This document shows positions 9,386-55,899 of a stretch of 64,000 nucleotides of DNA, piece by piece. The DNA lies in the NCBI GenBank assembly GCA_027487145.1, contig JAIYEC010000070.1:4477-68476 (forward strand). Direction: 5' to 3'. Numbering within the stretch: position 1 is the stretch's first letter; each line of letters begins with the position of its first letter. A program made the position numbers and the translations under genes. The stretch comes from a bacterium. Lineage in GTDB: Bacteria > Patescibacteriota > Minisyncoccia > Phycocordibacterales > UBA918. Under the pieces are notes generated by a model. The model worked only from the letters and a program-made list of their open reading frames with translations. It had not been told where the DNA came from and did not search any database.

Positions 9386-10243
9386 CTATCTGTCTATGTT
9401 ATACACCCGTCTAGCGTTTTGTAGAAGCTGGTTACGCACTGTCTCCTCATCCTCATTGCGGATAGCGGCGATGGTTTCGTACACTTCTTCTACCATCCAC
9501 GGTTCGGCTCGTTTGCCACGGTGTGGTATTGGGGCTACGTAGGGACAGTCGGTCTCCCCGTGGATGCGATCTAACGGCAACGCTCGCACGAGCTCTTCAT
9601 ATACCTTCGCGAAGGTAATCACGCCAGTAAATGACACGGTACCACCCAGTTCAAAAAACTTTTCCGCTTCCATCACTGTGCCAGCATAGAAGTGAACATT
9701 AAATGGCACCTTGGCGTATTGCTTGAGTGTCTCATACACGTCGACGTAGACACTACGTCCCGTTGGACTCTCCTCCCCCGGTTTTGGGTTACGGGTATGA
9801 ATCATGAGTGGTAACTCATGTTCATTTGCGAACTGTATCTGAGCGATAAAGTTTTCTTCTTGAGTCGCGAAGCTATCTGGTGTGGTGTGCCAATAATCAA
9901 ATCCACATTCTCCAACTCCTACTACTTTCGGTTGCTTCACAAGCTCTTCATAAAACGCTTTATTAAACGATTCACCCTTGCTAGTAAATGGCTTGGCGCC
10001 TTCACCCGTCTCCTCTTCATCGTGTCGTCCTGGCACTGTCTGGATCGGATGCAGTCCGATAATCGCATACATGTGCTCGTACCGCTGCGCGAGCTCTACC
10101 GCTTTTGCACTCGTTGATTCTTTTGTTCCGACATTAATGACTGCCACACCGCGGTCGGCACAGTCTTTGGCTACTGCTTCAACATCCTCAGCAAAGGCAG
10201 AAAGGTTTAAATGCGCGTGGGTGTCGATGTATTTTGCTTTCAT
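9386..10243 (-). CDS. tatD: TatD-family metal-dependent hydrolase / DNase
   Basis: N-terminal DTHAHL, plus GLHP and GECGFDY motifs. The protein is about 30 aa longer than typical TatD. Confidence 0.8.
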   Translation of the reverse strand: MKAKYIDTHAHLNLSAFAEDVEAVAKDCADRGVAVINVGTKESTSAKAVELAQRYEHMYAIIGLHPIQTVPGRHDEEETGEGAKPFTSKGESFNKAFYEELVKQPKVVGVGECGFDYWHTTPDSFATQEENFIAQIQFANEHELPLMIHTRNPKPGEESPTGRSVYVDVYETLKQYAKVPFNVHFYAGTVMEAEKFFELGGTVSFTGVITFAKVYEELVRALPLDRIHGETDCPYVAPIPHRGKRAEPWMVEEVYETIAAIRNEDEETVRNQLLQNARRVYNIDR

Positions 10244-18409: not shown

Positions 18410-21400
18410 TTATTTATTTTTTGTTATTGAGAAAATAAATTGTTCAGTATCAGTCGCTACCACTTCCCCATCAGTATCAGCGAAGATAAGTTCACTTGCA
18501 CCAACTGTCTTTACCAGCATGTCGTGATAGGTCTCAATGGCAGTTCGGCCAGGATGTGAAGTACTGATGGTAAGGACAATTGCATCCTGGGGCGCAAGAC
18601 CTTCGGTCTTGCGCCGTCCCTGCACTGCTCGCATCAGTTCACGCACATTTCCTTCGGCAATAAGTTCTGGGGTAAGAACAGTATCAATCGAAACAGCATC
18701 TCCAACGATGTACTTCTTGGCATTCATCTCATCCAAAACAATTATTCTCAGTTTTTCAGAAATATCAGAACCGGTGACACTCATGATAGGTTGTCTTACC
18801 TTAATATTTGCTTTTGTTCGAGCATCAAGCGCTTTCGCTACGATATCTCGCACAATGTTCATGTCTTTAATTACTTCTTGTGGGACCAGGGATGTCTCTG
18901 GCCACTTTTCAAGATGGACGCTCTCTGTATCACTATCCTCTTTTACCTGCTGCCACAGGTACTCGGCGTAGAATGGCATCACTGGAGCCATTACTTTAGC
19001 AAGATCTCTGAGGACATAACGAAGAGTTGCAATTCCATTAGTCCTATCATCTACGTTATCCCCCTTTAGCCTGTCCCGACTTCGTCTGAGGTACCAAGTT
19101 GAGAGATCATCAATGAAATCTGTGATTGGTCGGACGGCTTTATCAAGTTCATAGCCCTTGTAGCCTGCAGTCGATTCGTTTACAAGTTCTTGTAAACGAA
19201 TGAGTATCCATCTATCAAGAATATTCGTAGAAGTAGTATCAGCTTTTGTACCATCCCTTACCATCTGAAACATCTCAAATACATTATGTAGCCGTCCGAT
19301 ATTCTTGCGCTGTAGTTCGAGTACTTCTTTTTCTGAGAAGTTGAGGTCTTCTCCCTTTACAATCGGGGCTGAGAGCAGATAGAAACGCATAGCGTCTACT
19401 CCGGTACGATTGGCCAGCTCCATTGGGTCGGGGTAGTTTTGGAGTGACTTACTCATCTTCTTGCCATCCTCCGCGAGTGTGAGTCCATTTACCACTACAT
19501 TCTCAAACGGACTCTTTCCAAAAAGTGCTACTCCAAGAACAATCAATGAATAGAACCAGCCACGGGTTTGGTCGAGTCCTTCAGCAATAAAGTTGGCTGG
19601 GTAACAGGTTTTGAGAAACGCTTCAGGATTTTCTCCCATGAAGTGATGCTGAGCGTACGGCATCGATCCACTCTCAAACCAACAGTCAAACACATCTGGC
19701 ACACGTTCGAGCTGTACGCCATTTTCAAACAACGTAATGTTATCGATGTACGGACGGTGGAAGTCGAGTTCAAAGTGGTCGTTGTGTGGGAAAGGTGTGA
19801 AATCAATCTCGTGGAGACTACCAGTTTTAATATCACCTTCGGTATCCCAGCCTTTGACAATATCTTTATCAGAGACTCCTTCAGCTCCCCACTTCAAAAG
19901 GCGAAGTGGTAAACCATGTGAGACAAACAAAATATTTTTGCCTTGGTGTTTTGCTTCAACCTCAAATAGTACTTCGAGCATTCGACGCTTAATCTGCTGC
20001 CAACTTTCTCCACCCTCTTGATGAGCTGTCATTTTCTTATCTGGGGGGAGTCCGTCACGATAGGCATACCATTCTTCAACCGGACGACCCTCTAATACTC
20101 CGCCTTCATTTTCACGCAATCTCTCATCGACGATTACTTGCTCAGGAGAAAGACCAAGTGTCTGTGCTACTAACGCGGCCGTATCTTTCGTTCGCTTAAG
20201 TGGCGAGACATACACAAGATCGATTTGTTTATCGGCTAGTTCAGTGATAGTGGCTGCTACCTGCTCCTTCCCTCTTTCAGTCAGGGTATATGGATCTGAT
20301 GGAGATGAACTTAGAATGTGGTTGATGTTATGTTCTGCCTCACCATGACGCATCATGAAAAAGCGGTTGTTGTTTTTTGGTACATATGCCTGAAGTTCAG
20401 CTAGTGATCCGAATACCTTATAAGACTTCGTTTCAGGATTTCGCCAGATCGGAAGCGGTGCACCCCAATAACGCTGACGAGAAACCGCCCAATCGCGAGC
20501 TCCCTCAAGCCACTTCCCAAAGCGATTGCTTCCCACATGGTCTGGGACCCAATTCACGGTATTATTTGCTGCAAGCAAATCATCTTTAATGGCTGGAACA
20601 TTAACGAACCACGATGTAGTCGCGTAATTAAGAAGTGGTGTATCACAGCGCCAACAGTGCGGGTAGCTGTGGGTGATATTTTCTTTTTTTACAACCACTC
20701 CCTTGGCCTGCAAAAATCGCAACACTTCAATGTCGGTATCTTTATGATCGACCTCCGCTTTATCGTCGTCCTTTGGCTTCACCAGACGACCGGCAAAATC
20801 GGTGACGAAGTCTTTAAAGCGCCCTGCCTCATCAACGTGATGGAAGATTGGTACGCCATGGGCTTGAGCCAGCTTCATGTCGTCATCACCATAGGCTGGT
20901 GCAATATGTACCGCACCAGTACCGTCCTCTCCTACTTCGACATAGTCAGCATGACGAATAACCCAACCGTTCTCAGCTCCTTCAAGTTGCTGTTCTTGGA
21001 TATACGTAAATGGTGGCTGGTATCGCTTTCCAACTAAATCACTTCCTTTCATTTCTTCTACCACCTCGTGAGCGATATCACCTAGTTGGGCTAGTCGGCC
21101 TTTGGCTAAGATGTAATATTCACTCTCAACTTTTACCTTTACATAGGTAATGTCGCTATGCACCGCAGCTGCGATATTTCCTGGCAGGGTCCATGGCGTA
21201 GTCGTCCAAACAAGGAGACTCGTGTCAGTTGCATTACCTGAATCATCTAAGAGTGGGAGCTTCACAGTCACGGCAATATCTTTGATGTCTTTGTATCCTT
21301 GGTTTACTTCAAAGTTAGAGAGCGTCGTCCCACAGCGTGGACACAAGTGCATAGTCTTGAACCCTTCAAATACCAATCCCTTATCATGAAGTGACTTAAA

Positions 21401-21931
21401 CACCCACCACACACTTTCGGTATAGGTACTATCCATCGTCTTGTAGTCGTCAGCCATATCAACAAACCGACCCATTCGGGGAATAATCTCTCGCCAATCG
21501 TCAGCGTAGCGCATCACTGCACCGCTCGCTTTTTCGTTAAAATTCTTCACGCCGTACTCTTCGATGTCACGCTTGGTACCAAGTCCAAGTTCTTTTTCTA
21601 TCAGGTTTTCAAGTGGCAAACCGTGACAGTCCCACCCCCACTTTCGTGCGACCTGATAGCCATTCATCGTCCAAAAACGCGGAATAGCATCTTTGATGGT
21701 TCCAGCCAAAATATGCCCATAGTGTGGTAGACCGGTGGCAAAGGGTGGTCCATCATAAAAAACAAATTGTCCTACCGGCGCGGCGCCAGCTGGTGTCTCT
21801 AACGTCTTATTAAAAATATCTCGCTCTCGCCAAAACGTGAGCATAGCTTCTTCACGAAGTGCAACGTCACTTTTTGGGACATCAGACACCACTTCAACTG
21901 TGTCATTTTCACGACCATGTATTTTGTTCAT
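18410..21931 (-). CDS. ileS: isoleucyl-tRNA synthetase (type 2 / eukaryote-like) with an inserted histidine-phosphatase (PGAM-like) domain
   Basis: PFATGLPHYGH (HIGH), KMSKS, CP1 editing region, WAVSRQRYWGAPLPIW and DCWFESGSMPYAQ. An insert of about 190 aa between the last two carries RHGEAEHN, SPLKRTKDTA and FVSHGLP. Confidence 0.9.
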   Translation of the reverse strand: MNKIHGRENDTVEVVSDVPKSDVALREEAMLTFWRERDIFNKTLETPAGAAPVGQFVFYDGPPFATGLPHYGHILAGTIKDAIPRFWTMNGYQVARKWGWDCHGLPLENLIEKELGLGTKRDIEEYGVKNFNEKASGAVMRYADDWREIIPRMGRFVDMADDYKTMDSTYTESVWWVFKSLHDKGLVFEGFKTMHLCPRCGTTLSNFEVNQGYKDIKDIAVTVKLPLLDDSGNATDTSLLVWTTTPWTLPGNIAAAVHSDITYVKVKVESEYYILAKGRLAQLGDIAHEVVEEMKGSDLVGKRYQPPFTYIQEQQLEGAENGWVIRHADYVEVGEDGTGAVHIAPAYGDDDMKLAQAHGVPIFHHVDEAGRFKDFVTDFAGRLVKPKDDDKAEVDHKDTDIEVLRFLQAKGVVVKKENITHSYPHCWRCDTPLLNYATTSWFVNVPAIKDDLLAANNTVNWVPDHVGSNRFGKWLEGARDWAVSRQRYWGAPLPIWRNPETKSYKVFGSLAELQAYVPKNNNRFFMMRHGEAEHNINHILSSSPSDPYTLTERGKEQVAATITELADKQIDLVYVSPLKRTKDTAALVAQTLGLSPEQVIVDERLRENEGGVLEGRPVEEWYAYRDGLPPDKKMTAHQEGGESWQQIKRRMLEVLFEVEAKHQGKNILFVSHGLPLRLLKWGAEGVSDKDIVKGWDTEGDIKTGSLHEIDFTPFPHNDHFELDFHRPYIDNITLFENGVQLERVPDVFDCWFESGSMPYAQHHFMGENPEAFLKTCYPANFIAEGLDQTRGWFYSLIVLGVALFGKSPFENVVVNGLTLAEDGKKMSKSLQNYPDPMELANRTGVDAMRFYLLSAPIVKGEDLNFSEKEVLELQRKNIGRLHNVFEMFQMVRDGTKADTTSTNILDRWILIRLQELVNESTAGYKGYELDKAVRPITDFIDDLSTWYLRRSRDRLKGDNVDDRTNGIATLRYVLRDLAKVMAPVMPFYAEYLWQQVKEDSDTESVHLEKWPETSLVPQEVIKDMNIVRDIVAKALDARTKANIKVRQPIMSVTGSDISEKLRIIVLDEMNAKKYIVGDAVSIDTVLTPELIAEGNVRELMRAVQGRRKTEGLAPQDAIVLTISTSHPGRTAIETYHDMLVKTVGASELIFADTDGEVVATDTEQFIFSITKNK

Positions 21932-27687: not shown

Positions 27688-30282
27688 CTAACGTTGTTCC
27701 TCTTCTTGTCTCAGAAGGGCCAATTCCTTCATCAGTCGAACAATTTCTCCAAGGAGAACGACCATCGCTTTCTCTCTCGCTAGTGGTGCATCTGGGTTTT
27801 CAAAATATTCTGGGTACTGTTCTTTTAAGACAGCTTCAGCTGTGGGACTCGTGATAGTACGAAGTTCATCAATACGTTTGGTAGTTTCTCTTACTCTTGT
27901 ACTAGTCGTATTACCTGGGGCTTCAACATGCGACAAAGATACCTGTGTCAGGGTGGGAGTTTTTGTATCGTTTGTTGTACCGAGAGTTGCTCGCCAAGTG
28001 AAAGAAGTACCCTCAAGAGCAAGTTCTTCAAATGTCTCAGGTGAAAAAGGAACAAACGTAACACCTCCATCAATACTGTACTCATAGGCAACACTGGTAT
28101 CGGCAGGAATAGTTACGCTTGGAACAAACGTGGTAAAGCGACGCTTCGTATCGAAGGTTCTTGTCTCACTTGTGTATGTGAAGGAAGACTGATATGGACC
28201 GTTATATACAACCTTAGAAACTTTTGGTGAAGTGCTTGTGTCATCAGTCTCAAGCTCAACCCGATACTGAAGCCATGGATTTGAGCCAAGGGCATTTAGC
28301 GTACAGCTAGTGTAGCTGACGCAAGTGGTCCAACTGCTCCACTCGCCCATAATATCTGGTGTGCTAATTTGAATGTAGTCAATTTCAAGAGTGGTAGCAT
28401 CAAGTTCAGTACCTGAATTACTATAGGTATACGCATCAACTAAGATCATAGAGAAGGGTTGTTGCGCATCAAAAGTTATGGTCTGCCACTCATCAGTAGT
28501 TGCCTGTTTGGAAACATAGAACTCGAATTCATCAGTAGCTAGCCCAATATCCATCAAATCAGTTGATCGATTAAGTACCCTGTACCGCATGGTAACGACA
28601 GAACCAGATTGAAAATAATTATCAGCAAAACTGGTATCAATACCGAAATATGAATATTCAGGAGAGCCTAACGGTTCACCACTAAGACGAAGGACACCAT
28701 TAGTTGCAGTAGCAGTTTGCCAATTATACGCTGAACCATAGCCATAAGGATCGGCAGTATAGCTATCAATGGTATTGAGTTCATCCTGCCACACTGCGTT
28801 AGTTGTACCGGTACGGTATGAGAGCATTATTGAATGATCGTCAGTCGTTGAAGCAGTGACAGAAAGGGATGTGGTAGGAGTAGAGGCGATAAGGCGGGGG
28901 CTACCAAGATATGTACCGTCTGAATTATAAACACTTGGAGAAATAACAGAGAGACCATTAGAAGTGCTCACATATAACCAATCGTCTTCAAGAAACGAAT
29001 GGTAGACCGAATTGCTTACCAATGAAGGATTGCTGCTAACTCCATATTGAGCCACTAAAGTGTCATCTGTGGGACTTATAGTTCCTTGGGTATTTATAAC
29101 AGAGACCCCTATCCCACTTACATAGAGATAGTCATCATCGAGAAATACGTGGTTAACGTAATTCTCTAAAAGAGGAGGAGTACTTCCTTTATCGTAGCGA
29201 GTGACTAACGTATCATCTGCAGGATTATCGAAAGTTCCTTGCGTATTAATTACCGTAAGTCCATCACTTGCTACATACAATAGATTCCCATCCAAAAAAG
29301 AAAAATCTATTCTGTTTGTGGGTAAAGATGGAGTACTTCCGGTGTAGTAGCGAGTTACATACGTATCATCTGCAGGTGAAAGGGTTCCTTTAGTATCAAT
29401 CACTTCCACTCCCCCATATGAATTGAGGTAGAGGTAATTACCATCACGAAATGCCTGTGTAACCCGGGAATTAGCGAGGGACGGTGTACTACCTGTGTCG
29501 TACCGGATAACGAGCGTATCATCAGCTGGTGAGAGTGTACCTTGCGAATTTATCACATTAAATCCGTTGGAGGTGCTGATATATACCAGATTACCCTCTT
29601 TAAACGCATGGCTTGTACAGCCTGTACTGATAGAAGGACTACTTGTATTGGAATACTTCACAAGAAGAGTATCATCAGAAGGGTTGGTTGTACCCTTTGT
29701 ATCAACGACATGGAGACCACCGCCTCCGCCGCCACACCATACACTCATATATAGTAAATCACCTTCTTTAAAAGCATTATAGACAAAATTATCACTCAAC
29801 GCAGGTGAACTTCCTGTATGGTATCGAGCTACGAAAGTATCGTCGGAGGGGTCAGATGTGCTCTTCGTATCAAAGACGTATACCCCAGCATTTCGGGTAC
29901 TTATATAAACTAACCCATTTTCAATGAAGGAATGCGTGATGTAGCCGTAATCATCCGGTAATCCTGGATTCGTTGTCTTAGTATACGCATACCCTTTACT
30001 TATTTCTATTCCTCCATCTTGAAGAAAACTAGTCATCGCAAAGTAGTTTGACTTATTATTTCCAACGGAAAAATCTTCAAGAGTATCATCACTTGTGGAG
30101 GCGGTAGATGTAAGCGAGACTGGTGCTTCACTAAAATCCCAGGTGGTTGTCTCGGTCGCAGTCACGGCAGATGAAAGTTGTAAAAAAATTATAGGAGTGA
30201 GAATAAGTACCAAAAATAGCGCGATCTTAGCTCGACGCTCTTTGAGAACAATGGTATAAGGAGTGAAAATAGACCGTGACAT
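27688..30282 (-). CDS. large secreted repeat protein (about 8 tandem repeats of about 47 aa, LVIVD-like beta-propeller repeat) with a C-terminal coiled coil
   Basis: N-terminal signal/anchor, then repeats of the form DDT[LFY]V.RY.TGS.P.L..N.V...F.DGN.LY.S..G..VI.T.GT, Cys-free and Thr/Ser-rich. Confidence 0.55.
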   Translation of the reverse strand: MSRSIFTPYTIVLKERRAKIALFLVLILTPIIFLQLSSAVTATETTTWDFSEAPVSLTSTASTSDDTLEDFSVGNNKSNYFAMTSFLQDGGIEISKGYAYTKTTNPGLPDDYGYITHSFIENGLVYISTRNAGVYVFDTKSTSDPSDDTFVARYHTGSSPALSDNFVYNAFKEGDLLYMSVWCGGGGGGLHVVDTKGTTNPSDDTLLVKYSNTSSPSISTGCTSHAFKEGNLVYISTSNGFNVINSQGTLSPADDTLVIRYDTGSTPSLANSRVTQAFRDGNYLYLNSYGGVEVIDTKGTLSPADDTYVTRYYTGSTPSLPTNRIDFSFLDGNLLYVASDGLTVINTQGTFDNPADDTLVTRYDKGSTPPLLENYVNHVFLDDDYLYVSGIGVSVINTQGTISPTDDTLVAQYGVSSNPSLVSNSVYHSFLEDDWLYVSTSNGLSVISPSVYNSDGTYLGSPRLIASTPTTSLSVTASTTDDHSIMLSYRTGTTNAVWQDELNTIDSYTADPYGYGSAYNWQTATATNGVLRLSGEPLGSPEYSYFGIDTSFADNYFQSGSVVTMRYRVLNRSTDLMDIGLATDEFEFYVSKQATTDEWQTITFDAQQPFSMILVDAYTYSNSGTELDATTLEIDYIQISTPDIMGEWSSWTTCVSYTSCTLNALGSNPWLQYRVELETDDTSTSPKVSKVVYNGPYQSSFTYTSETRTFDTKRRFTTFVPSVTIPADTSVAYEYSIDGGVTFVPFSPETFEELALEGTSFTWRATLGTTNDTKTPTLTQVSLSHVEAPGNTTSTRVRETTKRIDELRTITSPTAEAVLKEQYPEYFENPDAPLAREKAMVVLLGEIVRLMKELALLRQEEEQR

Positions 30283-42695: not shown

Positions 42696-44381
42696 TTACT
42701 TCTTCCCTTCGTTTTCTTGGAGCTTCTTGCGAACCAATTGCTGGGCTGCGTTCATTGAGTGCTGGTAGTAGAGACTTTTTACTCCCTGCTTCCACGCTTG
42801 GAGGTAGAGCGCGTTGATATCCTTTACCGGCGTATCTGGCGCCACCATGATGTTGAGTGACTGCGCTTGGTCAATAAACTTCTGTCGATCTGCCGCTTGT
42901 TCGATTACCTTTGATTGATCGATTTCGGCAAAGGTTCGGTAGATGGCTTTTTCTTCATCTGAAAGACAATCGAGATGTTGAACCGAACCATCGTTATCGC
43001 GAATTGAATCCCAGGTTACCTTATCGTCGTGACCCTTCTGCGCCAAAAGTGCTTGAAGCGTAGGGTTCTTAATGGTTACCTTCATCTTGGCCACGTCTTT
43101 GACGTAACAGTTAGACCAGATTGGTTCGATACCTTGTGATACTTGTCCGAGAATAAAAGCAGAGGAGGTGGTTGGAGCAATCGCAATTAAGGTGGTGTTA
43201 CGACGACCGTAGCCCTTGAGTACTTCTGGCTCACCGAGCGTAGCTGCGAGTTCTTTGGTAGCAGCGTCAGCTTTATCTTTAATAAGCTTGAAAACTTCTT
43301 TATTGAGAGTAGCGGCTTCTTCGCTTTCAAATGGCAAGCCTTTTGCCTGAAGGAGTGAGTGGTATCCAAGAACACCAAGACCGAGAGCTCTATTTGCTTT
43401 AGCGAAGTTGTACGCTCGCTCCATAAAGGTGAAGGCGCGACGCTTTTCAGCTTCTTCGTGGTCACGCAGTGCTTCTAACTTTACGATAAATTCTTCCATG
43501 ACGGCATCCAAAAATGCTGTCATTGTTTCTACCAAGTCAGTGTCCTTCCAGGCGTCGTAGTGAAGAAGGTTGACTGATGAGAGACAACACACAAATGACC
43601 AGTCTTCCTTACTTGGAAGCATGATTTCACTACACATGTTACTCGCGTGAATGCGGAGCTTCTTGTCTTTATAGACATCAACCGTGTTATTGTTAGCAGT
43701 ATCGCTAAACATAATATATGGGTACCCCATTTCTCCCCGTCGTTGAATGATACGAGCCCAAACTTTTCGCTTGGCTTCATCCCCATCAATCATGGACTGC
43801 ATCCATTCGTCCCCTACTGTCACACCGTGGGTGAGCTTCTGAATTGGATTTCCTTCAGTTCCGATATCGAGGAACTCCATGATGTCATCGTGCTCTGCAG
43901 GGAGGTATGGTGAGAAGTGTCCGCGACGAACTGATCCTTGTGAGACCACCACGACGAGAGTCTCAAAGAGTTGCATAAAGTGGACTGAACCAGATGAGTA
44001 CCCGTTGTCATTTCCAATTGATGCTCCACGTGGACGAAGTGCTCCAAAGAATCCAGAACACCCACCACCAAACTTACTCATCATTCCCACCTCAGCGTTG
44101 GTGTAGAGAATGTCACCCATGTTGTCATCAACGTATGAGCCAAAACAGCTAATTGGAAGCCCTTTTGGATCACCAAAGTTAGCCCACACCGGTGAGGCGA
44201 GTGAAATCCAGCCACGACTCATGTAGTCAACAAACTTATCGGCAAAGCCGTCTTGTTTGAGATATTTTTCTGCAGTTTCCGCGATAACGCGAATGCGTTC
44301 TTCGGCTGTTTGACCCGGGGCGAGGTATCCTCGAGCAAGAAATCCGCGACTATTTTCGTTCAACCAGTACCATGGTTCCAT
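42696..44381 (-). CDS. nrdA: ribonucleotide reductase class I large subunit without an ATP-cone
   Basis: Motifs NMCSEI and PTTSSAFILG are present. The protein starts directly at the region after where an ATP-cone would be, 561 aa. Confidence 0.8.
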   Translation of the reverse strand: MEPWYWLNENSRGFLARGYLAPGQTAEERIRVIAETAEKYLKQDGFADKFVDYMSRGWISLASPVWANFGDPKGLPISCFGSYVDDNMGDILYTNAEVGMMSKFGGGCSGFFGALRPRGASIGNDNGYSSGSVHFMQLFETLVVVVSQGSVRRGHFSPYLPAEHDDIMEFLDIGTEGNPIQKLTHGVTVGDEWMQSMIDGDEAKRKVWARIIQRRGEMGYPYIMFSDTANNNTVDVYKDKKLRIHASNMCSEIMLPSKEDWSFVCCLSSVNLLHYDAWKDTDLVETMTAFLDAVMEEFIVKLEALRDHEEAEKRRAFTFMERAYNFAKANRALGLGVLGYHSLLQAKGLPFESEEAATLNKEVFKLIKDKADAATKELAATLGEPEVLKGYGRRNTTLIAIAPTTSSAFILGQVSQGIEPIWSNCYVKDVAKMKVTIKNPTLQALLAQKGHDDKVTWDSIRDNDGSVQHLDCLSDEEKAIYRTFAEIDQSKVIEQAADRQKFIDQAQSLNIMVAPDTPVKDINALYLQAWKQGVKSLYYQHSMNAAQQLVRKKLQENEGKK

Positions 44382-44421: not shown

Positions 44422-45735
44422 TTAAAAGAGGTCTTCGCTGGTTACGCTCGCTGAGCGCTTGTTGTAGTTGATTGATCGCTTCTGGAAGAAGTCTACGTGC
44501 TTGGTAGCAATTACTTCAGCATCAAACCAGTCAGTCTCTTCAAGGAGTGCGTCACTGACGTCGAAGATTCGAGGCATACCAATTGAGGCGAGCGAATTAT
44601 TGAAGCGGTGCTTGATGAATTCTTTTACGTTAGCAGCTGGCAAGAAGCTGAGTTCACCGGCTTCGTAAATCCAATCTACAATCTTGCTTTCTGCTTCATA
44701 TGCTTCACGACATGCTTCTACCACCTTCTGTCGGCATTCATCGTCAAACCATTCTGGATGTTCGCTCTTGATGATATTGATGACATCAATCCCAAACATT
44801 CCGTGCAAATTCTCTTCCTTTGAAGTTGCTTCCACAGCATTTGAAATACCCTTAAACAGATTACGATGCTTGTTGAAAGACATCATAATGAGGAACTGTG
44901 AGAAAAGTGAGACGTGCTCCACAAAGAGTGAGAAGAGCATGACTGACTGGAAGTAGTCCTTGTTTTCCTGGGTTCGTGAGAGATCAATTACCTTTTCGAG
45001 GTAATTCATTCGCTCTTGCATGACCGGGATATCCTTAATCTTTCGGAATTCATCATTAAGACCGAGAATTTCAAGCAAGTGTGCATACGCATCAGCGTGA
45101 CGAACTTCTGATTCTGAGAAGGTTGCGCCTACTGCTCCAATTTCTGGCTTTGGCATCTTTTTGTAGATGTCTCCCCAGAAGGTCTTTACTGCTACCTCAA
45201 TTTGAGCAATAGCAAGCATAGCGTTCTTAATAGCGCTTCGCTCTGCTTCGTTTACATTGACATGGAAGTCCTGAACATCAGAGGTGAAGTTAAATTCGGT
45301 GTGTACCCAGTATGAGTGACGGACCGCGGTGGTGTACTCGTAGAGTTCTGGATACTCATACGGTTTGAAGTTTTGCCGACGAGCGAAGATATCTCGTTCG
45401 CGAAGCTTCTTGCGCTCATTACGATAGATGATGTACGCCTTCGCGGTGGTAAAGTACCCCTTCTCCATGAGCGCTTGCTCAACCAAGTCTTGGATTTCTT
45501 CCACTGCTGGACTACCATCAATACACTTGTTAGCAATTTCACTACCGGTCTCTGCTGTTCCTGCCTGCACACACATAGCGATCACCTTCTGGTGAGCTAG
45601 TTCGGCTACTTCAATGGCGGCATCACGATTTCCTTCTCCGGTTTCGACGAGAGCCTTTGCGATAGCACTTTCAATTTTTGAAATATCGAAGGGCTTTAGT
45701 TGCCCGTCGCGCTTTCGAATGGTTTCGATGTTCAT
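44422..45735 (-). CDS. nrdB: ribonucleotide reductase small (radical-generating) subunit with an N-terminal ATP-cone domain
   Basis: ATP-cone (ETIRKRDGQLKPFDISKIESAIAKAL ... VEEIQDLVEQALMEKGYFTTAKAYIIYR) followed by a ferritin-like R2 core (EAERSAIKNAM..E..H..AY). The ATG at 45735 was preferred over the upstream ORF start. Confidence 0.85.
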   Translation of the reverse strand: MNIETIRKRDGQLKPFDISKIESAIAKALVETGEGNRDAAIEVAELAHQKVIAMCVQAGTAETGSEIANKCIDGSPAVEEIQDLVEQALMEKGYFTTAKAYIIYRNERKKLRERDIFARRQNFKPYEYPELYEYTTAVRHSYWVHTEFNFTSDVQDFHVNVNEAERSAIKNAMLAIAQIEVAVKTFWGDIYKKMPKPEIGAVGATFSESEVRHADAYAHLLEILGLNDEFRKIKDIPVMQERMNYLEKVIDLSRTQENKDYFQSVMLFSLFVEHVSLFSQFLIMMSFNKHRNLFKGISNAVEATSKEENLHGMFGIDVINIIKSEHPEWFDDECRQKVVEACREAYEAESKIVDWIYEAGELSFLPAANVKEFIKHRFNNSLASIGMPRIFDVSDALLEETDWFDAEVIATKHVDFFQKRSINYNKRSASVTSEDLF

Positions 45736-46030
45736 ACTAATAAACTTGAATTGGTAAAAAGATGAATTATCGCGCACGAACATAATTGGTGGAAGACCGC
45801 TGCAATGAATTGCGCAGCACAATTAGGTTCACAAGCGATTAGGTCGCGACTAACACGCACGCGTTCTTTAAAAACGCGCTTGAAACTCGATATGAGTTTG
45901 TGTGTCTTACCTCCGACACACGAGACCTCGTGTGGTTTCATTACTATAGCACTGAGGTGAGAAGCTTGGCTATTTTATTGACGCCAAACGGAGGCTATTT
46001 TTCGTTAGCTATCCACAGTATTCTGGGGAC
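45736..46030 (-). promoter_or_regulatory. long structured 5' leader upstream of nrdB-nrdA
   Basis: About 290 nt without a credible ORF. It contains several hairpins, including cacacgag..ctcgtgtg and cgcgtt..aacgcg. Confidence 0.35.
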
Positions 46031-47895: not shown

Positions 47896-47970
47896 TGGCG
47901 GCTATAGTATAATGGTTAATGCATCGGTTTGTGGTACCGAGAATTCGGGTTCAATTCCCGGTAGCCGCCC
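47896..47970 (+). tRNA. tRNA-His (anticodon GTG), with encoded G-1 pairing to C73
   Basis: Folded manually. A 7-bp acceptor stem (gcggcta/tagccgc) with an extra G-1:C73 pair, D arm gtat/atgc with a GG loop, anticodon stem tcggt/accga with loop ttGTGgt, T arm tcggg-ttcaatt-cccgg, and a trailing CC. Confidence 0.85.
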
Positions 47971-48045
47971 CTTTTAGAGCTAGCACGAGAAGGCTACAAA
48001 AATGAACCTCAATTGGGGTTCATTTTTGTAGCCTCTGGTATGCAA

Positions 48046-48963
48046 TTAAACAAGATTTAGAATCTTCGCAACCAGATATTCTGTATCAGAAAAAAATTCA
48101 GATATTTTATTATTCTGGTCTTTATAACCATTTTGCGGGAAAAAACCAAAGTGAATTAACCTATTGCGAATTTTTTCTATCTTTTCTGCGTTTTCTTCTT
48201 CCTTACCATCAAGAAAGTATTCATTTCTGACAAATCTATATTTTTGCTCCACGCTCATTTTTGATATCTCTTTATTATTCATCAATAAAGAATGGTGTAG
48301 TGAAAAAATATGTTCCCAAATTGACCAAGATAGAATAAAAGCGGATTCTGTACACTGGCGTTTTTGCGCCTGAGCAAAAATTAAAAGAAATGCGCCTTTA
48401 CTATATTTCTTTTGCCATACCTCATCCTTAATAGTGGAACATACTTTATTTACCGCGATTTCTAGCCCCTGATCAAATCTGAGCCATTCAAATGCACTAA
48501 GCCCATTTATCTCGACCTCAGAAATGATTTCTCGTGTTTGATTATTTATAGCTTTTCCTACAGGTAGAACAAATCGACCAAAATTACCCCTATGTTGCCT
48601 TGGATCTTCAATAATCTGTATTCTACTTTCAGCGTCACGCCATGTCTTTGCAATAATATTTCGCCCAGTAAGGAGTGATAGAACTAGTAGTATATCTAAA
48701 AATTCTCTAGGTTTTTGGGAACCTACTTCTATACTATTCCACGGCAAAATTGCAACTTTTTGTCTTGAGGGCAACAACGCCAAGGCAGTCACCCGATGAC
48801 TGCCTTGATTGACCTCAAATGAAGTGCTGTTGTACGAGTGCGACAATTCTTTTAATATTTTTTTGTAATCAGGAGCCTGCTTAAAACAATACTCACCTAC
48901 ATTCAGCTCTAAAACATTATCTGGAAACTCAAGGTTGTATATTTCAATCTGAACCCTATCCAT
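48046..48963 (-). CDS. hypothetical protein (island cargo, 305 aa)
   Basis: AT-rich ORF with no recognisable motif. It is the last gene of a three-gene operon. Confidence 0.5.
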   Translation of the reverse strand: MDRVQIEIYNLEFPDNVLELNVGEYCFKQAPDYKKILKELSHSYNSTSFEVNQGSHRVTALALLPSRQKVAILPWNSIEVGSQKPREFLDILLVLSLLTGRNIIAKTWRDAESRIQIIEDPRQHRGNFGRFVLPVGKAINNQTREIISEVEINGLSAFEWLRFDQGLEIAVNKVCSTIKDEVWQKKYSKGAFLLIFAQAQKRQCTESAFILSWSIWEHIFSLHHSLLMNNKEISKMSVEQKYRFVRNEYFLDGKEEENAEKIEKIRNRLIHFGFFPQNGYKDQNNKISEFFSDTEYLVAKILNLV

Positions 48964-49282
48964 TTCCTAATTTTAAGTTGTGTATTGAGAAAAGTAAAAA
49001 TAACGCAGTAACAAAATCAATTATTATCCAAACATCACGAGTAAGGAATACAGGAATAAAAGGGTTAAACAATACTGCTATCACACCAAAGAGCCATACC
49101 CAACCCTCTTGCTTATCTTTGTACGCAAGGTAGGCAACGTATGTAGTCGAAGCAAATACAACGAAACGAAGAATTGTAAAAAATCCATATTGCCAACCAT
49201 CAATCAAAGCTAATAAAAGAAAAACTGATGCAATAAACAGTGCGGTATTTTTCTTTTTATTTTGACCAAAGACCATGTACAA
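48956..49282 (-). CDS. hypothetical small membrane protein (island cargo, 3 TM)
   Basis: 108 aa. It overlaps the downstream gene by 8 nt. Confidence 0.45.
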   Translation of the reverse strand: MYMVFGQNKKKNTALFIASVFLLLALIDGWQYGFFTILRFVVFASTTYVAYLAYKDKQEGWVWLFGVIAVLFNPFIPVFLTRDVWIIIDFVTALFLLFSIHNLKLGNG

Positions 49283-49288
49283 AATAAG

Positions 49289-50476
49289 TTAATTCTTTGG
49301 TGTCAGAAATCTGAAACTTACTCCAGCGGCTTTATAAACATGATCTAGACCTTCTGGTGTAAAGTCGCCTCCAAACAATCTCATTGAACCATCATTATCC
49401 ATACACACTTGCATAAACATAAAATTGTCTTCAATTTTATACATAAAATGCCAAGTACCGACAAGTTTATTCCTATGTTCTTTTAAGAACACTAATATTT
49501 GCGACTGAGTGAAACAGAGATTGTTTAAATCTTTATCTATAGATTTAAACATCTTGTATATCGTTGAATCATTAATAAGATAATGTACTTGTGCTTCAGC
49601 AATGTTTGTGTTTTTTGAAACAAAGTCTGATTTATTTATATCTTCTTCTTCAAAAAAGATAATTTTAAAACTTTCTTTTGAGTTTGCAATATTTATTTTT
49701 CCGTCTGTAGGTGGTATTTGAAAAACAGTATCTGTTTTTATAAGTACATTATTGGGTATATTTTTGATGTCATTGTCTTTTTCCCAAATGATTTTTGATT
49801 CAGTAGAAATATCAGAACTATTAAGTTCTTTAATTTTATACTCTTCATCTTCTTGTTTGCCATAACTTTTTTGAACCTCCTTTGAAATTTTTTCAAAATC
49901 AACATCTTCCTCAATATCTGGTAGATATCCGAAATCGTATTCAATTTTTTCATCTGAACAATCCTGGGAGCCTGTGCCTGCAAGATAATCTTCTTTTGAA
50001 ATTTCTTTAGAGCCGAATAGCTTCTCAAATTTCTCTCGGATAAGAATACCTCCTGTTGGATCTGATTTTCCTATCGACTCTATTTTGGCAATATACTTTT
50101 CATAGCTTGGATAACCATTAAATAGCCAAAAACCAAGTTCTTGAATATTTTGAACCATGTCTGGTGCATTCTGATTAGCTAAATCAATATATAAGTAATA
50201 TGCAGCCTTAATGTATTTTTTAGGGTATGGCAATAATGACATTGGTACTAATGTCATTAATGGATGTAGGGGTAGATGCTCGTTAAATAATTTCAACTGG
50301 AATGAATTAAAATCTTTAAACACCTTCTCTGCGAGGGCATAGTTTGGTTCTTTATATTCTGGGACTGATTCTTTAATCAGATTATAAGCTTTTATTAAAT
50401 CTGAATTATCATACTGATTCACTACCTCCCTATGTGAAATTTTATTTTTAAATAAGCCAAACATATTTTTTATCAT
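49289..50476 (-). CDS. hypothetical protein (island cargo, 395 aa)
   Basis: Very AT-rich with no recognisable motif. It is the first gene of the operon. Confidence 0.5.
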   Translation of the reverse strand: MIKNMFGLFKNKISHREVVNQYDNSDLIKAYNLIKESVPEYKEPNYALAEKVFKDFNSFQLKLFNEHLPLHPLMTLVPMSLLPYPKKYIKAAYYLYIDLANQNAPDMVQNIQELGFWLFNGYPSYEKYIAKIESIGKSDPTGGILIREKFEKLFGSKEISKEDYLAGTGSQDCSDEKIEYDFGYLPDIEEDVDFEKISKEVQKSYGKQEDEEYKIKELNSSDISTESKIIWEKDNDIKNIPNNVLIKTDTVFQIPPTDGKINIANSKESFKIIFFEEEDINKSDFVSKNTNIAEAQVHYLINDSTIYKMFKSIDKDLNNLCFTQSQILVFLKEHRNKLVGTWHFMYKIEDNFMFMQVCMDNDGSMRLFGGDFTPEGLDHVYKAAGVSFRFLTPKN

Positions 50477-50555: not shown

Positions 50556-51908
50556 CTATCTTAAACTTACCTTTCTATCAGTCAGAACAATATGACTCTT
50601 TAAACACCTTATAAATTCACGCTTTTCCTCAACGCTTCCCTCTTGGAGAATAAACTTGGCATAGTTTCGAATATCTATATCCTTTACTACCGCTGAGTTC
50701 TTGTTTCCAAGTAACATATGCTCAAACTTCTTCACTCGCTTTAATTCTTCGGTAATCTTTTCTCTAAGAGGAACAATCTGCATATCTAAATCATCGACTA
50801 AGCTTTGCAGTTGTGGTATCAAGTCGTCTTCGTTAATGAGAGCATTGGGACAGAAGTGGTCTTTGATACGTGTACATTTGTAATAGACGTAGCGGTGGGT
50901 ATTGCCGTTTTTTTGGTGTTTAAATTTCTCATCAGCGGTAATACCCGAGCCACAAAGTCCACATGTCATGATTTTGGTAAAAGCGAACTCTTTTTGAGCG
51001 TACTTTGGTTCTAGAACCTGACTCTTAATCTTTTCTTGCACTAAATCAAATAATTCTTTCGTGATAATTGGTTGATGTGAGCCGTTGTACCAAACACCTG
51101 AACCTTTTGGAAATTCAAAACGACCGTAATAAAAATGGGCTTCTAGAATGCGGTAGATGTTACCAAGACTGAGATGCATATTATTTTCAGTCCTGAAGTT
51201 CACTTCTTCTTTTAACCACTAATGTAGCTTTCGACCACTCCAACCATCATACGCAACCTTCTCAAACATCTGTTTAATGATTGGTGCTCGTTCTGGGTCG
51301 ATTACTGATTCACACTTCTGATCCATTCGTTTGAACTTGGTGTAGCCAGTCAGTGGTCGGCACGGCCACAATCCCATCTCCACTCTTGCCCGCAGTCCTC
51401 GCTTCACGTTTTGACTCTTATTATCGTTTTCAAGTTTGGCTTGCGAACACAGAATCATGAGTAGGAACTTTTCGTTCGGAGAATTAGAGAACGTCTGTCC
51501 ATACGTTTGAATATGAACTAACTTCTTCTGGTCCATCAGGTCTACTAGCGAACCGAGGTCACCCGCATTACGACTTAGTCGGTCTGGTGCCCAGGCCATA
51601 ATTCCATCGTATGTACCGTTTCTAATCTCTTCTAGCAATTCTTTAAAGACAGGTCGCTGTCCTGAATCTTTAGCGGAATGAGCTTCACGTTTAATGGTGA
51701 CTATGTTTAGATTTTGCCGTTCAGCAATCGCCATCATTTCTTTGACCTGTGAATCAATCGATAGTGCTTGCATTTCATCAGACTCAGTACTCTTTCTGGC
51801 GTATAAGCAGTAGCGAATTCTCGCTCCACTAATTGATACACCGTCTTGTACTCTGCCCACAACATTAGTTTCCATCCTTAATTGATGACAGAACGAAAAA
51901 ACCTGCAT
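50556..51908 (-). pseudogene. large serine recombinase (resolvase catalytic domain, recombinase domain and zinc ribbon) interrupted by one in-frame TAG at 51219-51221
   Basis: The N-terminal part has YARKSTESDEMQALSIDSQ. The C-terminal part has the recombinase domain and a Cys4 ribbon. The two ORFs are in the same frame, separated only by TAG plus 5 codons (..GWSGRKLH*WLKEEVNFR..). Confidence 0.7.
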
Positions 51909-52153
51909 AGCTATGCAAGCTAGCGGAAACGTTACCTATTCGCTCGGTAAAAGGCTACTACTTTCAAAATAACTAATATTTATAGGCCTATAATGCTGTG
52001 CACGACGTGTGAATAGTCTTTACTTTCGCCTTTTATCGTGTTAACATTATTGTGGCTGGTTGCTCAGCAATGAGCTAGTCCACCTCTCGACGATGTGGAT
52101 ATCCGCGAGGAAACTGGCTTCAAAAACACCTCTCTTCGGAGGGGTCTTTTTGT

Positions 52154-53053
52154 TTATTGGATGGGACAATTTTGGTGAAAATTCCAATTTACCTTATTTA
52201 CGTCAGGAACACAGGTCAGACCACATCCACGGACATTTCCCTGAGCATTGGCATGAAAGTTACATCTGATTTTCTCAAAATAGTCGTAAGTCTCCATTTG
52301 CTTCTTACCATCAGCAGATACCCTGTCACCACACCATTCCCTTCCATACACGGTAAACTGTCTATGAATGTTGTAGGCACAAATATCCGCTATCTGGAGA
52401 AAATTTTCGTCGCATGACTTCTTAAAATCCACATCCACTATATTTTCATAGCTCTCAGAAAATTTAGTCTCCATACCAAGATTGTTGGTAAAGATACCCC
52501 GAATCTTGTTGTGGGCACCTTTTTCAAGAGAGAGTGAAGACTCAAACTGATCAAATGTGACCACGTTGATGTTGCCAGCATAATTTATCCGTTCCAACAT
52601 TATCTGTGTCGTCTTCAAAAAAGGATTTCCATCTCCGGTTGCTCGCTTCGCATCGCCGTAATACCTCTTGTCAAAAACAACACCAATTACCTTCATCTTG
52701 TCAGCATTCTGAGCAATAAGATCATGCAGATCGTCACCAAACTTATTAAGTTGCTCAACGGTAATACCGTAGGGGTCTAAGTAGTGTTTCTTCCTTTTGT
52801 CTGGTATACGCAACCAAGTCGACTTTATTTCCACATCCGCAGTACCGAAGCAAGCAATCTTTAACGTCCTAACTGCCGCGTCAATAATCCCAATATCTGA
52901 TTGTTTTATACGCACACCACAAAGTACGAAATAGTTTTCCCGCCAAAACTGCTCATTACCTTCAAATGCTGGTGGATTGTCTTTAAAATCCCTTGAGTAT
53001 GGGGCATTGTAGTCTTTCATTCCACTATCATCTACGAAGACTTTATAAAGCAT
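52154..53053 (-). CDS. DUF3800-like protein
   Basis: The N-terminal MLYKVFVDDSG resembles the Y-x-F-x-D-E-S-G start of DUF3800 proteins, which are often found on mobile elements. Confidence 0.4.
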   Translation of the reverse strand: MLYKVFVDDSGMKDYNAPYSRDFKDNPPAFEGNEQFWRENYFVLCGVRIKQSDIGIIDAAVRTLKIACFGTADVEIKSTWLRIPDKRKKHYLDPYGITVEQLNKFGDDLHDLIAQNADKMKVIGVVFDKRYYGDAKRATGDGNPFLKTTQIMLERINYAGNINVVTFDQFESSLSLEKGAHNKIRGIFTNNLGMETKFSESYENIVDVDFKKSCDENFLQIADICAYNIHRQFTVYGREWCGDRVSADGKKQMETYDYFEKIRCNFHANAQGNVRGCGLTCVPDVNKVNWNFHQNCPIQ

Positions 53054-53100
53054 TGGACTATTTTATCAGTTTGTGGTCTTAAGTAAAACAAACCCCTTCA

Positions 53101-53470
53101 GCCAACCAATCCAGGTACATCTCTTCAAATTGGTTCGACTGAGGGCATTACTGTACATTTTAGAGCTAGCCTGAGAGTGACATAAACCTTGTACGAGGTG
53201 AATATTATTAAAAGAGTGACAGTTCCTTGTCACTATGTGACACACGTGAATAAGTGTCACTTTTGTCACTTTTTGCCTATGCACGAGAAGGGTTCTTTTG
53301 AATAAAAATCACTAGCTAGAAAAGCCTTACAGGGTAACGAACCAAACAAGTCGTATCTGCTGAAGGCGCCCTGGAGCAAAGTCCCCCTTGGGGGACTTTT
53401 GCGTAAGGGCGGCCAAGCGAGTGAACTGCTTCACTGCGTCCGGGAATCGAAAGCCGCAGTCATGTTGCGG
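53101..53470. repeat. copy 1 of a conserved hairpin-rich non-coding element, split by a 220-nt insertion that carries the GTGACA array
   Basis: 53101-53148 matches 55611-55661, and 53369-53459 matches 55668-55761. The common core is ccctggagcaaagtccccc..gggggacttttgcgtaaggg, a second hairpin, then gtccg(g/a)gaatcgaaagccg. Confidence 0.55.
53174..53269. promoter_or_regulatory. array of five GTGACA/TGTCAC half-sites forming two inverted repeats plus extra half-sites, about 120-215 bp upstream of the DUF3800 gene
   Basis: gtgacagttccttgtcac and gtgacacacgtgaataagtgtcac, plus agagtgacat and ttttgtcac, read directly from the sequence. Confidence 0.4.
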
Positions 53471-53975
53471 AGCAACAGACGAGGCGGGGTCGAGAGTACT
53501 TAGTAAAATCAGAGCGAAGCGAATAATTCTACTTAGTAACTCGTGACCGATTCCTCCCGGTAGCCGCACTAACGAAAATTTATTTAAAGGGTCCCTATAT
53601 ATGTAGGGATTTTTTAGTTCCAGTCTGATATACTTTTTTTGTATGAGTATATATTTAAAGATGCTTCTTTTGATAGCATCCATATATATTTTTATAGGGA
53701 TAGTATTCGCAACAAAATGGGCAATTACTTATGACCCTGCAGTAAACTCATTTCCTAATAATCCAGTCTCATTTCTTTTTAATATAATATTTTGGTTTAA
53801 TGAATTTTAATTTCATCAAAGCTGGGAATATGTATACTCACATCACCTAACCTCTCAAACACAGTTCTAACATCCTTTACGACGTCGCCCATTTTAAGGA
53901 GCTTTATTTAACAACATATTTTAAAGGTATTTTTTAGTACCTACTGTCCCTAGTAGAACCTGCTATAATTTTACT

Positions 53976-54317
53976 ATGCTGATAGTAACATTCTCACATA
54001 TAGTTAATGCACTCGTAGCGGGAGGTATAGGTATATTACTCCTCCTGAATCTTCCTAGTATGACGGCAGTGTATGGAGAAGCAACTCCTGCCCGATCTAT
54101 CCTGACCAGTGTCTATCTTGCAATTGCAGCAGGAAGTTTATTTGCACTTATCTTTCCCTTACACAGTATCGCAATCGCAAAAGTGCTTTTTCCATTACAG
54201 ATACTATATAAATTTTCAACCATACTAACCGTGGGGACAATTACCCATCCCGTTGTATTAAGTAATCTATTTATTAGCGTATTACACGCCGTCTCTTTAT
54301 TTATGATTTTTAAGTAG
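53976..54317 (+). CDS. hypothetical membrane protein
   Basis: 113 aa with 3-4 hydrophobic helices. Confidence 0.4.
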   Translation: MLIVTFSHIVNALVAGGIGILLLLNLPSMTAVYGEATPARSILTSVYLAIAAGSLFALIFPLHSIAIAKVLFPLQILYKFSTILTVGTITHPVVLSNLFISVLHAVSLFMIFK

Positions 54318-55543: not shown

Positions 55544-55610
55544 GTTAAGTATGCTGATGTGACATATCCCTCCTATGTGAACATCTCAAGCAAAACAAAA
55601 CCCTTGCTTC

Positions 55611-55765
55611 ACTCAACCATTCAAGACACAGCTCTTCCAATTGGTTCCACCCGAGGGTTGGCAGCCGCCCTGGAGCAAAGTCCCCCTTTCGGGGGACTTT
55701 TGCGTAAGGGCGCCTAGGGAAGCAGACTGTTTTGCTTCCGTCCGAGAATCGAAAGCCGGAGCGAT
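55611..55765. repeat. copy 2 of the conserved hairpin-rich non-coding element (contiguous form)
   Basis: See copy 1. It lies between the stop of the 747-aa surface protein gene and the start of arsR. Confidence 0.55.
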
Positions 55766-55899
55766 ATTTATGAGCGAGCAGGTGAGAAATGGGATGGGAC
55801 CCGTTTCCCAAACTTTTTTCACTCTACGACCTCGCGTAAACGAAAAAACACCAGGCTATTTGTCCGGTGTTTTTACATTTCTTTATATAAGTATAGTGA

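Follow-up and report, generated by a model that had tools for sequence, protein, structure and literature searches.

The recombinase gene and the element around it

The window, by which we mean the whole stretch of 64,000 nucleotides that we analyzed, carries on its minus strand a gene for a large serine recombinase. The gene has a size of ~440 codons, and its reading frame is continuous save for one TAG. The longest reading of the frame, from 51908 to 50556, comprises 450 codons with a single internal stop, and the translation around this stop is ...GWSGRKLH*WLKEEVNFRTENN... Because intact homologues mostly begin METNV, the true start of the gene is probably the ATG at 51875 rather than position 51908. 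The gene and its parts are listed here by position.

50556..51908, minus strand: large serine recombinase gene, interrupted, recognized by its Pfam domains and by intact homologues of ~440 aa
51222..51875, minus strand: N-terminal frame, 218 codons from METNV, with the catalytic resolvase domain, the next helix and ~25 residues from the start of the recombinase domain
51219..51221, minus strand: in-frame TAG at codon 230, seen on the plus strand as 'cta'
50556..51218, minus strand: C-terminal remainder, with the rest of the recombinase domain, the four-Cys zinc ribbon and the C-terminal region, intact and severed from the start codon
50556-50558, minus strand: natural terminator of the recombinase, also TAG, at the C-terminus common to the homologues

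Using Pfam, we assigned residues 35-179 to Resolvase (PF00239, E = 3.7e-22), residues 205-296 to Recombinase (PF07508, E = 1.2e-13), and residues 310-363 to Zn_ribbon_recom (PF13408, E = 4.1e-7). The Recombinase match spans the codon-230 stop, which lies ~25 residues into that domain. A protein search returned thousands of intact ~440-aa homologues, the best of them with 95% amino acid identity. In an alignment of 20 sequences, R38, S40, and D109-R110-x-x-R113 are invariant, as are the zinc-ribbon residues C316, C319, C345, and C353. An earlier reading of the bare sequence (the first-pass annotation) had held that the catalytic ORF and the recombinase/zinc-ribbon ORF share one frame and are split only by the TAG at 51219-51221, and that the protein alignment runs smoothly over this codon. 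Retranslation and the Pfam assignments agree with the former statement, and the latter is borne out by the intact homologues, which align without gaps over the position of the stop.

The recombinase appears to belong to a small (~5.3 kb) integrative element beside a tRNA-His gene, in a host that is probably a member of the Patescibacteria (CPR). The other features of this element and its surroundings are as follows.

47898..47971, plus strand: tRNA-His (GTG), flanking the element, on the strand opposite to the recombinase
47983..47993, plus strand: left 11-bp direct repeat GCACGAGAAGG, candidate boundary on the tRNA side, with a hairpin (47991-48034) next to it
48046..50476, minus strand: three cargo ORFs (305 aa, a 108-aa DUF6804 protein, and 395 aa) in a low-GC segment
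52154..53053, minus strand: DUF3800 gene (Pfam), between the conserved block and the recombinase
53202..53280, minus strand: conserved non-coding block on the inner side of the far boundary; it includes AAAAAGTGACAAAAGTGACAC and more GTGACA/TGTCAC repeats
53281..53291, plus strand: right 11-bp direct repeat GCACGAGAAGG, candidate far boundary, which makes the unit ~5.3 kb long
53549..53572, plus strand: fragment like the 3' end of tRNA-His (GATTCCTCCCGGTAGCCGCAC), with CCCGGTAGCCGC common to it and the tRNA, followed by a hairpin and a T run (direct reading)
53825..53903, plus strand: second, degenerate tRNA-end-like remnant, then an element-end-like sequence, with 86% identity to positions 266-342 of the related locus L163

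The 11-bp repeats are candidate element ends. The left copy lies 12 nt downstream of tRNA-His, not within the tRNA, and the same repeat, which reads CCTTCTCGTGC on the recombinase strand, also brackets the units of the related loci L081 and L163. If the element does end at these repeats, then the empty site would consist of tRNA-His...TTTTAGAGCTA joined straight to GCACGAGAAGGGTTCTTTTG, and the circular form would have the two element ends joined. Further att-like or tRNA-end-like repeats are found alongside the exact 11-bp pair, at 53158-53176, 53549-53572, and 53825-53903, and the second of these may be a tRNA end displaced in an integration event. Two sequence blocks on either side of the conserved block (53077-53139 and 53364-53473) recur at 55584-55775 as a diverged second copy. 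Taken together, the tRNA-end-like fragments and the diverged second block copy suggest serial integrations at tRNA-His. L163 is syntenic with this region and has the same arrangement of tRNA-His and recombinase; its host locus (tRNA-His, YibE_F, and the small subunit of RNR) is likewise occupied, by a related element with different cargo. The GC content of the window is 0.31 to 0.35 at 48-51 kb, compared to about 0.45 for the rest, and the low-GC segment begins at ~48000.

The best promoter-like match of the region coincides with the conserved block and points to the DUF3800 gene and the recombinase. The 19-mer core of this block occurs once in the window, and 44 of 174 loci have an exact match to it, in each case on the recombinase strand. 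Considering the wider block, we could place it relative to a full-length gene in 52 loci; it was upstream in 50 of these, at distances of 0.1 to 9.7 kb, and downstream in two. An E-value scan of 52900-54000 with Rfam gave no match, and ARAGORN detected no tRNA or tmRNA in the same interval. By eye, we also considered the conserved far-end blocks as a tmRNA, an RNase P RNA, or an intron-containing tRNA, and dropped all three. For the cargo ORFs, we found no homologues among the related loci, and PADLOC and PHROGs returned no match. With PHROGs, we detected no phage genes in the element; the recombinase itself matches an integrase family (phrog_95, E = 7.6e-64).

Judging by record titles, almost all of the 80 genomic loci of homologues that we compared come from Patescibacteria, including Saccharibacteria, Paceibacteria, Nomurabacteria, Kaiserbacteria, and others, and several genomes carry two or three copies. 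These titles, together with the synteny to L163, are what suggests a member of the Patescibacteria as the host; a comparison of housekeeping genes with the retrieved loci was uninformative. The cargo differs completely from locus to locus. Across 159 loci, the flanking tRNA genes show a strong polarity: 101 were downstream of the recombinase on the opposite strand, 19 downstream on the same strand, and 14 upstream. The nearest tRNA was most often Glu, Ser, or Gln. The recombinase is one of a very large, strongly conserved family of compact serine recombinases, belonging to small elements beside tRNA genes, mainly in Patescibacteria, with variable cargo and an invariant 19-21-nt site upstream of the recombinase. 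The family is apparently undescribed. We found no description of it in the literature searched, and a paper on horizontal transfer in Patescibacteria leaves recombinases unmentioned.

In searches by sequence, the recombinase matched the structures of SprA (9dxh), TP901-1 (3bvp), and A118 (4kis), with a weak alignment to SprA over residues 360-420, and with integrases of GenBank phages it reaches identities of only about 24 to 28%. It shares with the serine integrases of this group (SprA/YokA of SPbeta, those of Listeria phage A118/U153, and TP901-1) the order of resolvase-type catalytic domain, recombinase domain, and zinc ribbon. It also shares the motifs YARKST and DRLSRN, which we take to be the sites of the serine recombinase nucleophile Ser and the catalytic Arg residues, and the four zinc-ribbon Cys, all of which are invariant in the alignment of the present family. 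Unlike the serine integrases of phages, the present protein is compact (~440 aa) and resides in an element of ~5 kb without phage genes, the family adjoins tRNA genes, and the gene studied here is interrupted.

The element also resembles the tRNA-linked islands collected in the Islander database (PMC4383910) in that it adjoins a tRNA gene, is lower in GC than its surroundings, is bracketed by short direct repeats as candidate ends, and has tRNA-end-like fragments on its far side. According to that source, such islands are usually integrated by tyrosine integrases (PMC4383910). In contrast, the present enzyme is a serine recombinase, and the repeat lies 12 nt past the tRNA rather than inside it. 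Given that tyrosine integrases usually move tRNA-linked islands, a tRNA-associated family of serine recombinases seems worth a note. The interrupted gene is itself a finding of little weight, and the surrounding element family is of modest value.

Origin of the stop and condition of the gene

We compared the codons around the stop with those of related loci. The gene under study reads CAT TAG TGG at codons 229 to 231. At the same codons, L165, the nearest intact relative among the loci retrieved (91% nucleotide identity over the gene), reads CAT CAG TGG, and L081 reads CAT CAA TGG. Because L165 has CAG at codon 230, a single C-to-T change suffices to make the stop, and such a transition in a Gln codon explains how the internal TAG arose. 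A comparison with related loci had been proposed as a check in the first-pass annotation, and it favors this origin: at the stop position, a sense codon stands in L165, L081, L082, and a further 161 loci. The alignment column is variable over 159 homologous loci (H in 60, N in 37, S in 12, Q in 10, A in 10, and also L); therefore, the residue at codon 230 appears not to be constrained in the family.

The exact N- and C-terminal products of the interrupted gene are found in only one public contig, and an exact-pattern DNA search around the stop in metagenome and viral collections returned no match. This single occurrence, together with the fact that one base separates TAG from CAG, could indicate a consensus or assembly error or a minority variant, such that CAG is the true allele of the population and TAG is an artifact of a metagenome-assembled contig. 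Single-base consensus errors that create a stop in one given gene are rare. Moreover, alleles with a single stop exist in nature, given that two of them in related genes are reproducible: the L163 allele is the same in a JGI and a Logan assembly (L163 and L164), and the L169 allele recurs without change in six contigs taken from different samples. We regard an artifact as very unlikely.

Aside from the stop, the gene is in good order. Measured against L081, with dS near 1, dN/dS is 0.026 before the stop and 0.031 after it, and on neither side does the protein deviate in any column with a conservation of at least 98% among 120 homologues. We used parsimony to assign changes to the terminal branch, taking L165 as the sister and L081, L163, and L082 as outgroups. 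Upstream of the stop, there were 11 synonymous and no non-synonymous changes; downstream, there were nine synonymous changes and one non-synonymous change. A sequence released from selection is expected to gain roughly three non-synonymous changes for each synonymous one. The ratio of nine to one downstream therefore suggests that the stop is very young relative to the short terminal branch or, less likely, that the downstream part is still selected or the stop tolerated. Sequence alone does not separate a very recent stop from a gene still under selection.

The explanation that we favor, with a probability of roughly 0.8, is a very recent and ordinary knockout of the gene by a one-base nonsense mutation. 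A C-to-T transition changed the Gln codon 230 from CAG to TAG, and translation would now end inside the recombinase domain. The truncated product would keep the catalytic domain, but the zinc ribbon, the C-terminal region, and the greater part of the recombinase domain would be lost. In large serine recombinases, binding to the attachment sites and synapsis depend on these parts; therefore, the truncated recombinase should be inactive. The gene would then be a very young pseudogene, and the element would no longer be mobile by its own enzyme. A recent nonsense mutation was among the options raised in the first-pass annotation, and it is the one that gained ground here, from the CAG of L165 and from a remainder of the gene that is free of decay.

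Immobilization of the element, as a 'frozen island', is plausible. The element could be served in trans by a paralogous recombinase encoded elsewhere in the genome. We found no second copy of the recombinase within the window, and related genomes often have two or three paralogous recombinases.

Degraded integrase genes in immobilized prophages and islands are a well-known phenomenon. The present case resembles them in that a single inactivating mutation appears to have struck the mobility gene of an integrated element, and many relatives of the recombinase carry other stops, frameshifts, or deletions. It differs from them in that the lesion is so recent that the remainder of the gene is indistinguishable from functional copies. 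The interrupted gene thus looks like a textbook case of a nonsense allele in a mobility gene, and nothing at this locus speaks for a non-standard code or for special tricks in translation. The absence of such evidence has value as a negative result, given that an in-frame TAG is at times read as a mark of recoding.

TAG as a terminator and the question of recoding

Among 71 crude non-overlapping ORFs of the window, 39 end with TAA, 25 with TAG, and 7 with TGA. The gene for FtsK (44-1552) terminates with TAG, 14 residues past the gamma domain, and those for SHMT, ThyA, and TatD have TAG at their normal ends. The claim of the first-pass annotation that TAG is a genuine stop elsewhere in the window, as in the FtsK gene, thus holds, and it extends to these further genes. 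Within the island, both the DUF6804 gene and the recombinase itself terminate with TAG. The terminators of 159 genes of the recombinase family comprise 101 TAA, 45 TAG, and 13 TGA.

In some phages, TAG is reassigned to an amino acid, and the first-pass annotation had raised the possibility that the element evolved in such a context. Reassignment of TAG by the element or its host would give the internal codon a meaning, and the ancestral residue at codon 230 is Gln, the amino acid assigned to TAG in known recoded phages. The likeness to TAG-recoded phages (genetic code 15) consists in this in-frame TAG where Gln stood. A recoded element would be expected to have many in-frame TAGs across its genes, and the present window has only one same-frame split in a real gene. 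The genes of such an element would also not be expected to use TAG as a terminator. Here, TAG terminates the DUF6804 gene and the recombinase, the latter at its conserved C-terminus, and it ends 25 of the 71 ORFs, both housekeeping and island genes included. The element is also without phage genes.

We scanned all six frames of the window for pairs of long ORFs in the same frame. No second gene is split by a lone TAG, and in the other two TAG-separated pairs that the scan returned, the frames overlap with larger ORFs, on their own strand or on the complementary one. An excess of in-frame TAGs in other island genes, for which the first-pass annotation had advised a check, is thus absent. Across the family, an in-frame TAG is missing from all 161 full-length homologous loci. 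The in-frame stops that do occur in these loci are limited to a TGA at the position of S43 in L024 and a TAA in a non-conserved N-terminal extension of L041.

The window contains only two tRNA genes, tRNA-His and tRNA-Leu(GAG). A suppressor tRNA (CUA), the other feature that was to be looked for, is missing from the 64-kb window, and among 136 tRNAs in 2.29 Mb of related loci there is none with a CTA, TCA, or TTA anticodon. Given that TAG is an ordinary terminator here, that no other gene is split, and that the loci scanned hold no suppressor tRNA, we rejected stop-codon recoding, which we consider extremely improbable for this element.

Lone stops in related genes and their bearing on read-through

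The 90%-identity cluster of the recombinase protein holds a second split gene, represented by L163 (JGI) and L164 (Logan), which do not differ from each other and have 86% identity to the gene in the window. Their sequence reads CAC CAA TGA, such that the codon of the invariant Trp-231 has changed from TGG to TGA. A search with the C-terminal fragment yielded L167 (78% amino acid identity), in which W231 has likewise changed from TGG to TGA. A search with the N-terminal fragment yielded the P0305 gene (L169-L174), which reads TAC CAT TAG, with TGG changed to TAG at W231; its sequence is identical in the six contigs that we retrieved of 17 on record. With the gene in the window, these make four independent lineages whose only stop is at codon 230 or 231, and in all four the frame can be read across the stop without a second stop or a frameshift. 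This is more clustering than expected. However, the cases came from fragment classes whose break falls near this position by construction, which argues against a special site. Lone stops are frequent in the family. Each one verified in DNA, the TGA of L024 included, is restricted to one sequence or to copies that do not differ, and Q, H, or W codons stand there in the relatives examined. Two further candidates were set aside, given that the break of L166 at codons 236 to 238 is a run of N in a scaffold gap and the apparent break of L168 is an N-terminal deletion.

We also examined where truncated members of the family end. For N-terminal fragments that end cleanly, we took the next residue from the closest full-length homologue. 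These fragment ends precede Y220, W223 (twice), K227, Y229 (three times), W231, K233, W273 (twice), and Y274. The codon after a clean fragment end is stop-prone, the ends are spread over the whole sampled range, and all three Trp codons in this range were struck at least twice. Because the two fragment searches returned only truncated proteins and seem biased to the length of the query, the pile-up of ends near codon 229 is not to be taken at face value. As a second measure, we grouped C-terminal fragments by the internal Met at which gene callers restart. The density of breaks was 0.34 per codon in the interval 214 to 246, compared to 0.47 to 0.63 in the four preceding intervals. Both the break density by internal-Met class and the codons after the fragment ends speak against codons 229 to 231 as a family-wide hot spot.

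A leaky stop, either tolerated or useful, would account for some of these observations. A few ribosomes would pass the TAG, a near-cognate tRNA-Gln would put back the original Gln, and the resulting low level of full-length recombinase would keep the element mobile at a reduced rate. Under this reading, the downstream half would be expected to look as it does, unrelaxed on the terminal branch and with its conserved columns intact, and the inserted residue should not matter at a variable column. In three further lineages, an otherwise intact gene has a lone stop one codon on, at 231, and one of these alleles is unchanged in 17 contigs from several samples. However, no stop is common to diverged relatives, each being an event at a tip of the tree, and the family's fragment ends precede many stop-prone codons (W223, Y229, W273, and others), with fewer C-terminal breaks per codon in 214 to 246 than elsewhere.

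The surroundings of the codon speak against a leaky stop as well. The fourth base after the internal stop is T (TAGT), which is also the commonest base after the genuine TAG terminators of the window (10 of 24), and one of these terminators reads TAGTGT. There is no stimulatory structure 3' of the stop; a stretch of 161 nt at and after the stop folds no better than its shuffles (z = -0.15). Overall, we find a leaky stop unlikely. The proposal of the first-pass annotation that programmed read-through attenuates the recombinase is not supported by a stop that is confined to one tip lineage, in an ordinary TAG-T context, with no more structure than shuffled sequence.

Alternatively, the enzyme may be made in two pieces, with an N-terminal catalytic fragment and a C-terminal DNA-binding fragment that restarts at the GTG at 51203 or the ATG at 51179, the two cooperating or having separate roles. 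A start codon does follow soon after the stop in three lineages, as a GTG at 15 nt in the window, a GTG at 12 nt in L163, and an ATG at 12 nt in L169. In contrast, L167 has no nearby ATG or GTG past its stop, and by direct reading there is no Shine-Dalgarno-like sequence ahead of the GTG in the window. The break falls ~25 residues inside the Pfam Recombinase domain and at no domain boundary, and the split is conserved in no clade. We judge a two-piece enzyme highly improbable.

The simplest reading of the clustering at codons 230 and 231 is that these are ordinary mutational targets, TGG and CAG being the codons easiest to stop via G:C-to-A:T transitions. With so easy a route to a stop and thousands of copies in the family, the same codon can be struck repeatedly. 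It is decidedly unlikely, in our view, that leaky or reversible stops instead settle preferentially at codons 230 and 231, and that the recombinases concerned are throttled rather than dead. If that were the case, a near-cognate tRNA-Gln or tRNA-Trp would restore the residue at low frequency, and the host would keep a useful island while the element kept a small chance of moving.

Family membership and mosaic structure of the recombinase

The large serine recombinase of the window belongs to a family of tRNA-associated serine-recombinase elements. Across the related loci L001 to L162, flanking tRNA genes were strongly polarised relative to the recombinase: those downstream of it numbered 101 on the opposite strand and 19 on its own strand, and those upstream numbered 14. 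At these loci, the tRNA gene closest to the recombinase was most often that for Glu (29 loci), followed by Ser (20), Gln (13), Arg (7), and Trp (5), plus others.

The window's recombinase (gene 50556-51875) is a mosaic. Compared with the gene of its relative L082, the N-terminal half carries only two non-synonymous changes at a dS of 0.86, whereas the C-terminal half stands well apart from L082 (dN 0.17) and resembles a second relative, L081, closely. These data suggest a past exchange between recombinase lineages, at about the domain boundary.

Stops and a false break in related recombinases

In three further lineages, we detected a lone in-frame stop at the codon of the invariant Trp-231, which adjoins the codon-230 stop of the window:

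L163, 5235-5237, TGA
L167, about 323-325, TGA
L169, 4667-4669, TAG

The L169 stop allele was identical across the six contigs fetched, and its N-terminal product was the same in 17 contigs on record. In the recombinase of another related locus, L024, an in-frame TGA (about 10112-10114) replaces the conserved Ser-43 codon. We rejected the split recombinase of L166 (about 2280-2290) as a mimic, its codons 236-238 being occupied by a run of N that marks a scaffold gap.

Sequence features upstream of the recombinase

Upstream of the recombinase lie a conserved 19-mer, a hairpin, and a diverged direct repeat made of two sequence blocks:

53254-53272, minus strand, 19-mer AAAGTGACAAAAGTGACAC, single occurrence in the window
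51900-51921, minus strand, hairpin of 9 bp, then a T run
53077-53139 and 53364-53473, first copy of the repeat
55584-55650 and 55663-55775, second copy of the repeat

The exact 19-mer was found in 44 of the 174 related loci, on the recombinase strand every time (positions recorded within L001 to L148). Considering the 52 loci that allowed the wider block around it to be placed against a full-length recombinase gene, this block lay upstream in 50 (0.1 to 9.7 kb) and downstream in two. About 20 nt beyond the 19-mer is an inverted repeat of the TTACA-N6-TGTAAC type. The region could be a promoter or operator, or a recombinase-binding site.

The hairpin lies directly upstream of the probable recombinase start at 51875, overlaps the start of the longer reading at 51908, and, with its T run, could be an attenuator or terminator.

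The two copies of the repeat are 76 to 90% identical. The blocks of the second copy are contiguous, and those of the first are set about 225 nt apart by the conserved GTGACA block. The hairpin GCAAAGTCCCCC...GGGGGACTTTTGC is present in both copies. The first copy had no Rfam match, and Rfam coverage of the second consists only of a gathering-threshold scan of the whole window.

Other genes in the window

An 864-aa open reading frame (27688-30282, minus strand) had no Pfam match at E <= 1e-5. The small subunit of ribonucleotide reductase (44422-45822, minus strand) bears an ATP-cone at its N-terminus, and the adjoining 561-aa large subunit (42696-44381, minus strand) had no ATP-cone match. A class I aminoacyl-tRNA synthetase of 1173 aa (18410-21931, minus strand), which we take to be an Ile-tRNA synthetase from its pattern of tRNA-synt_1, Anticodon_1, and DUF5915 domains, contains a His_Phos_1 (histidine-phosphatase) domain at residues 525-690 that splits the catalytic domain into two halves.
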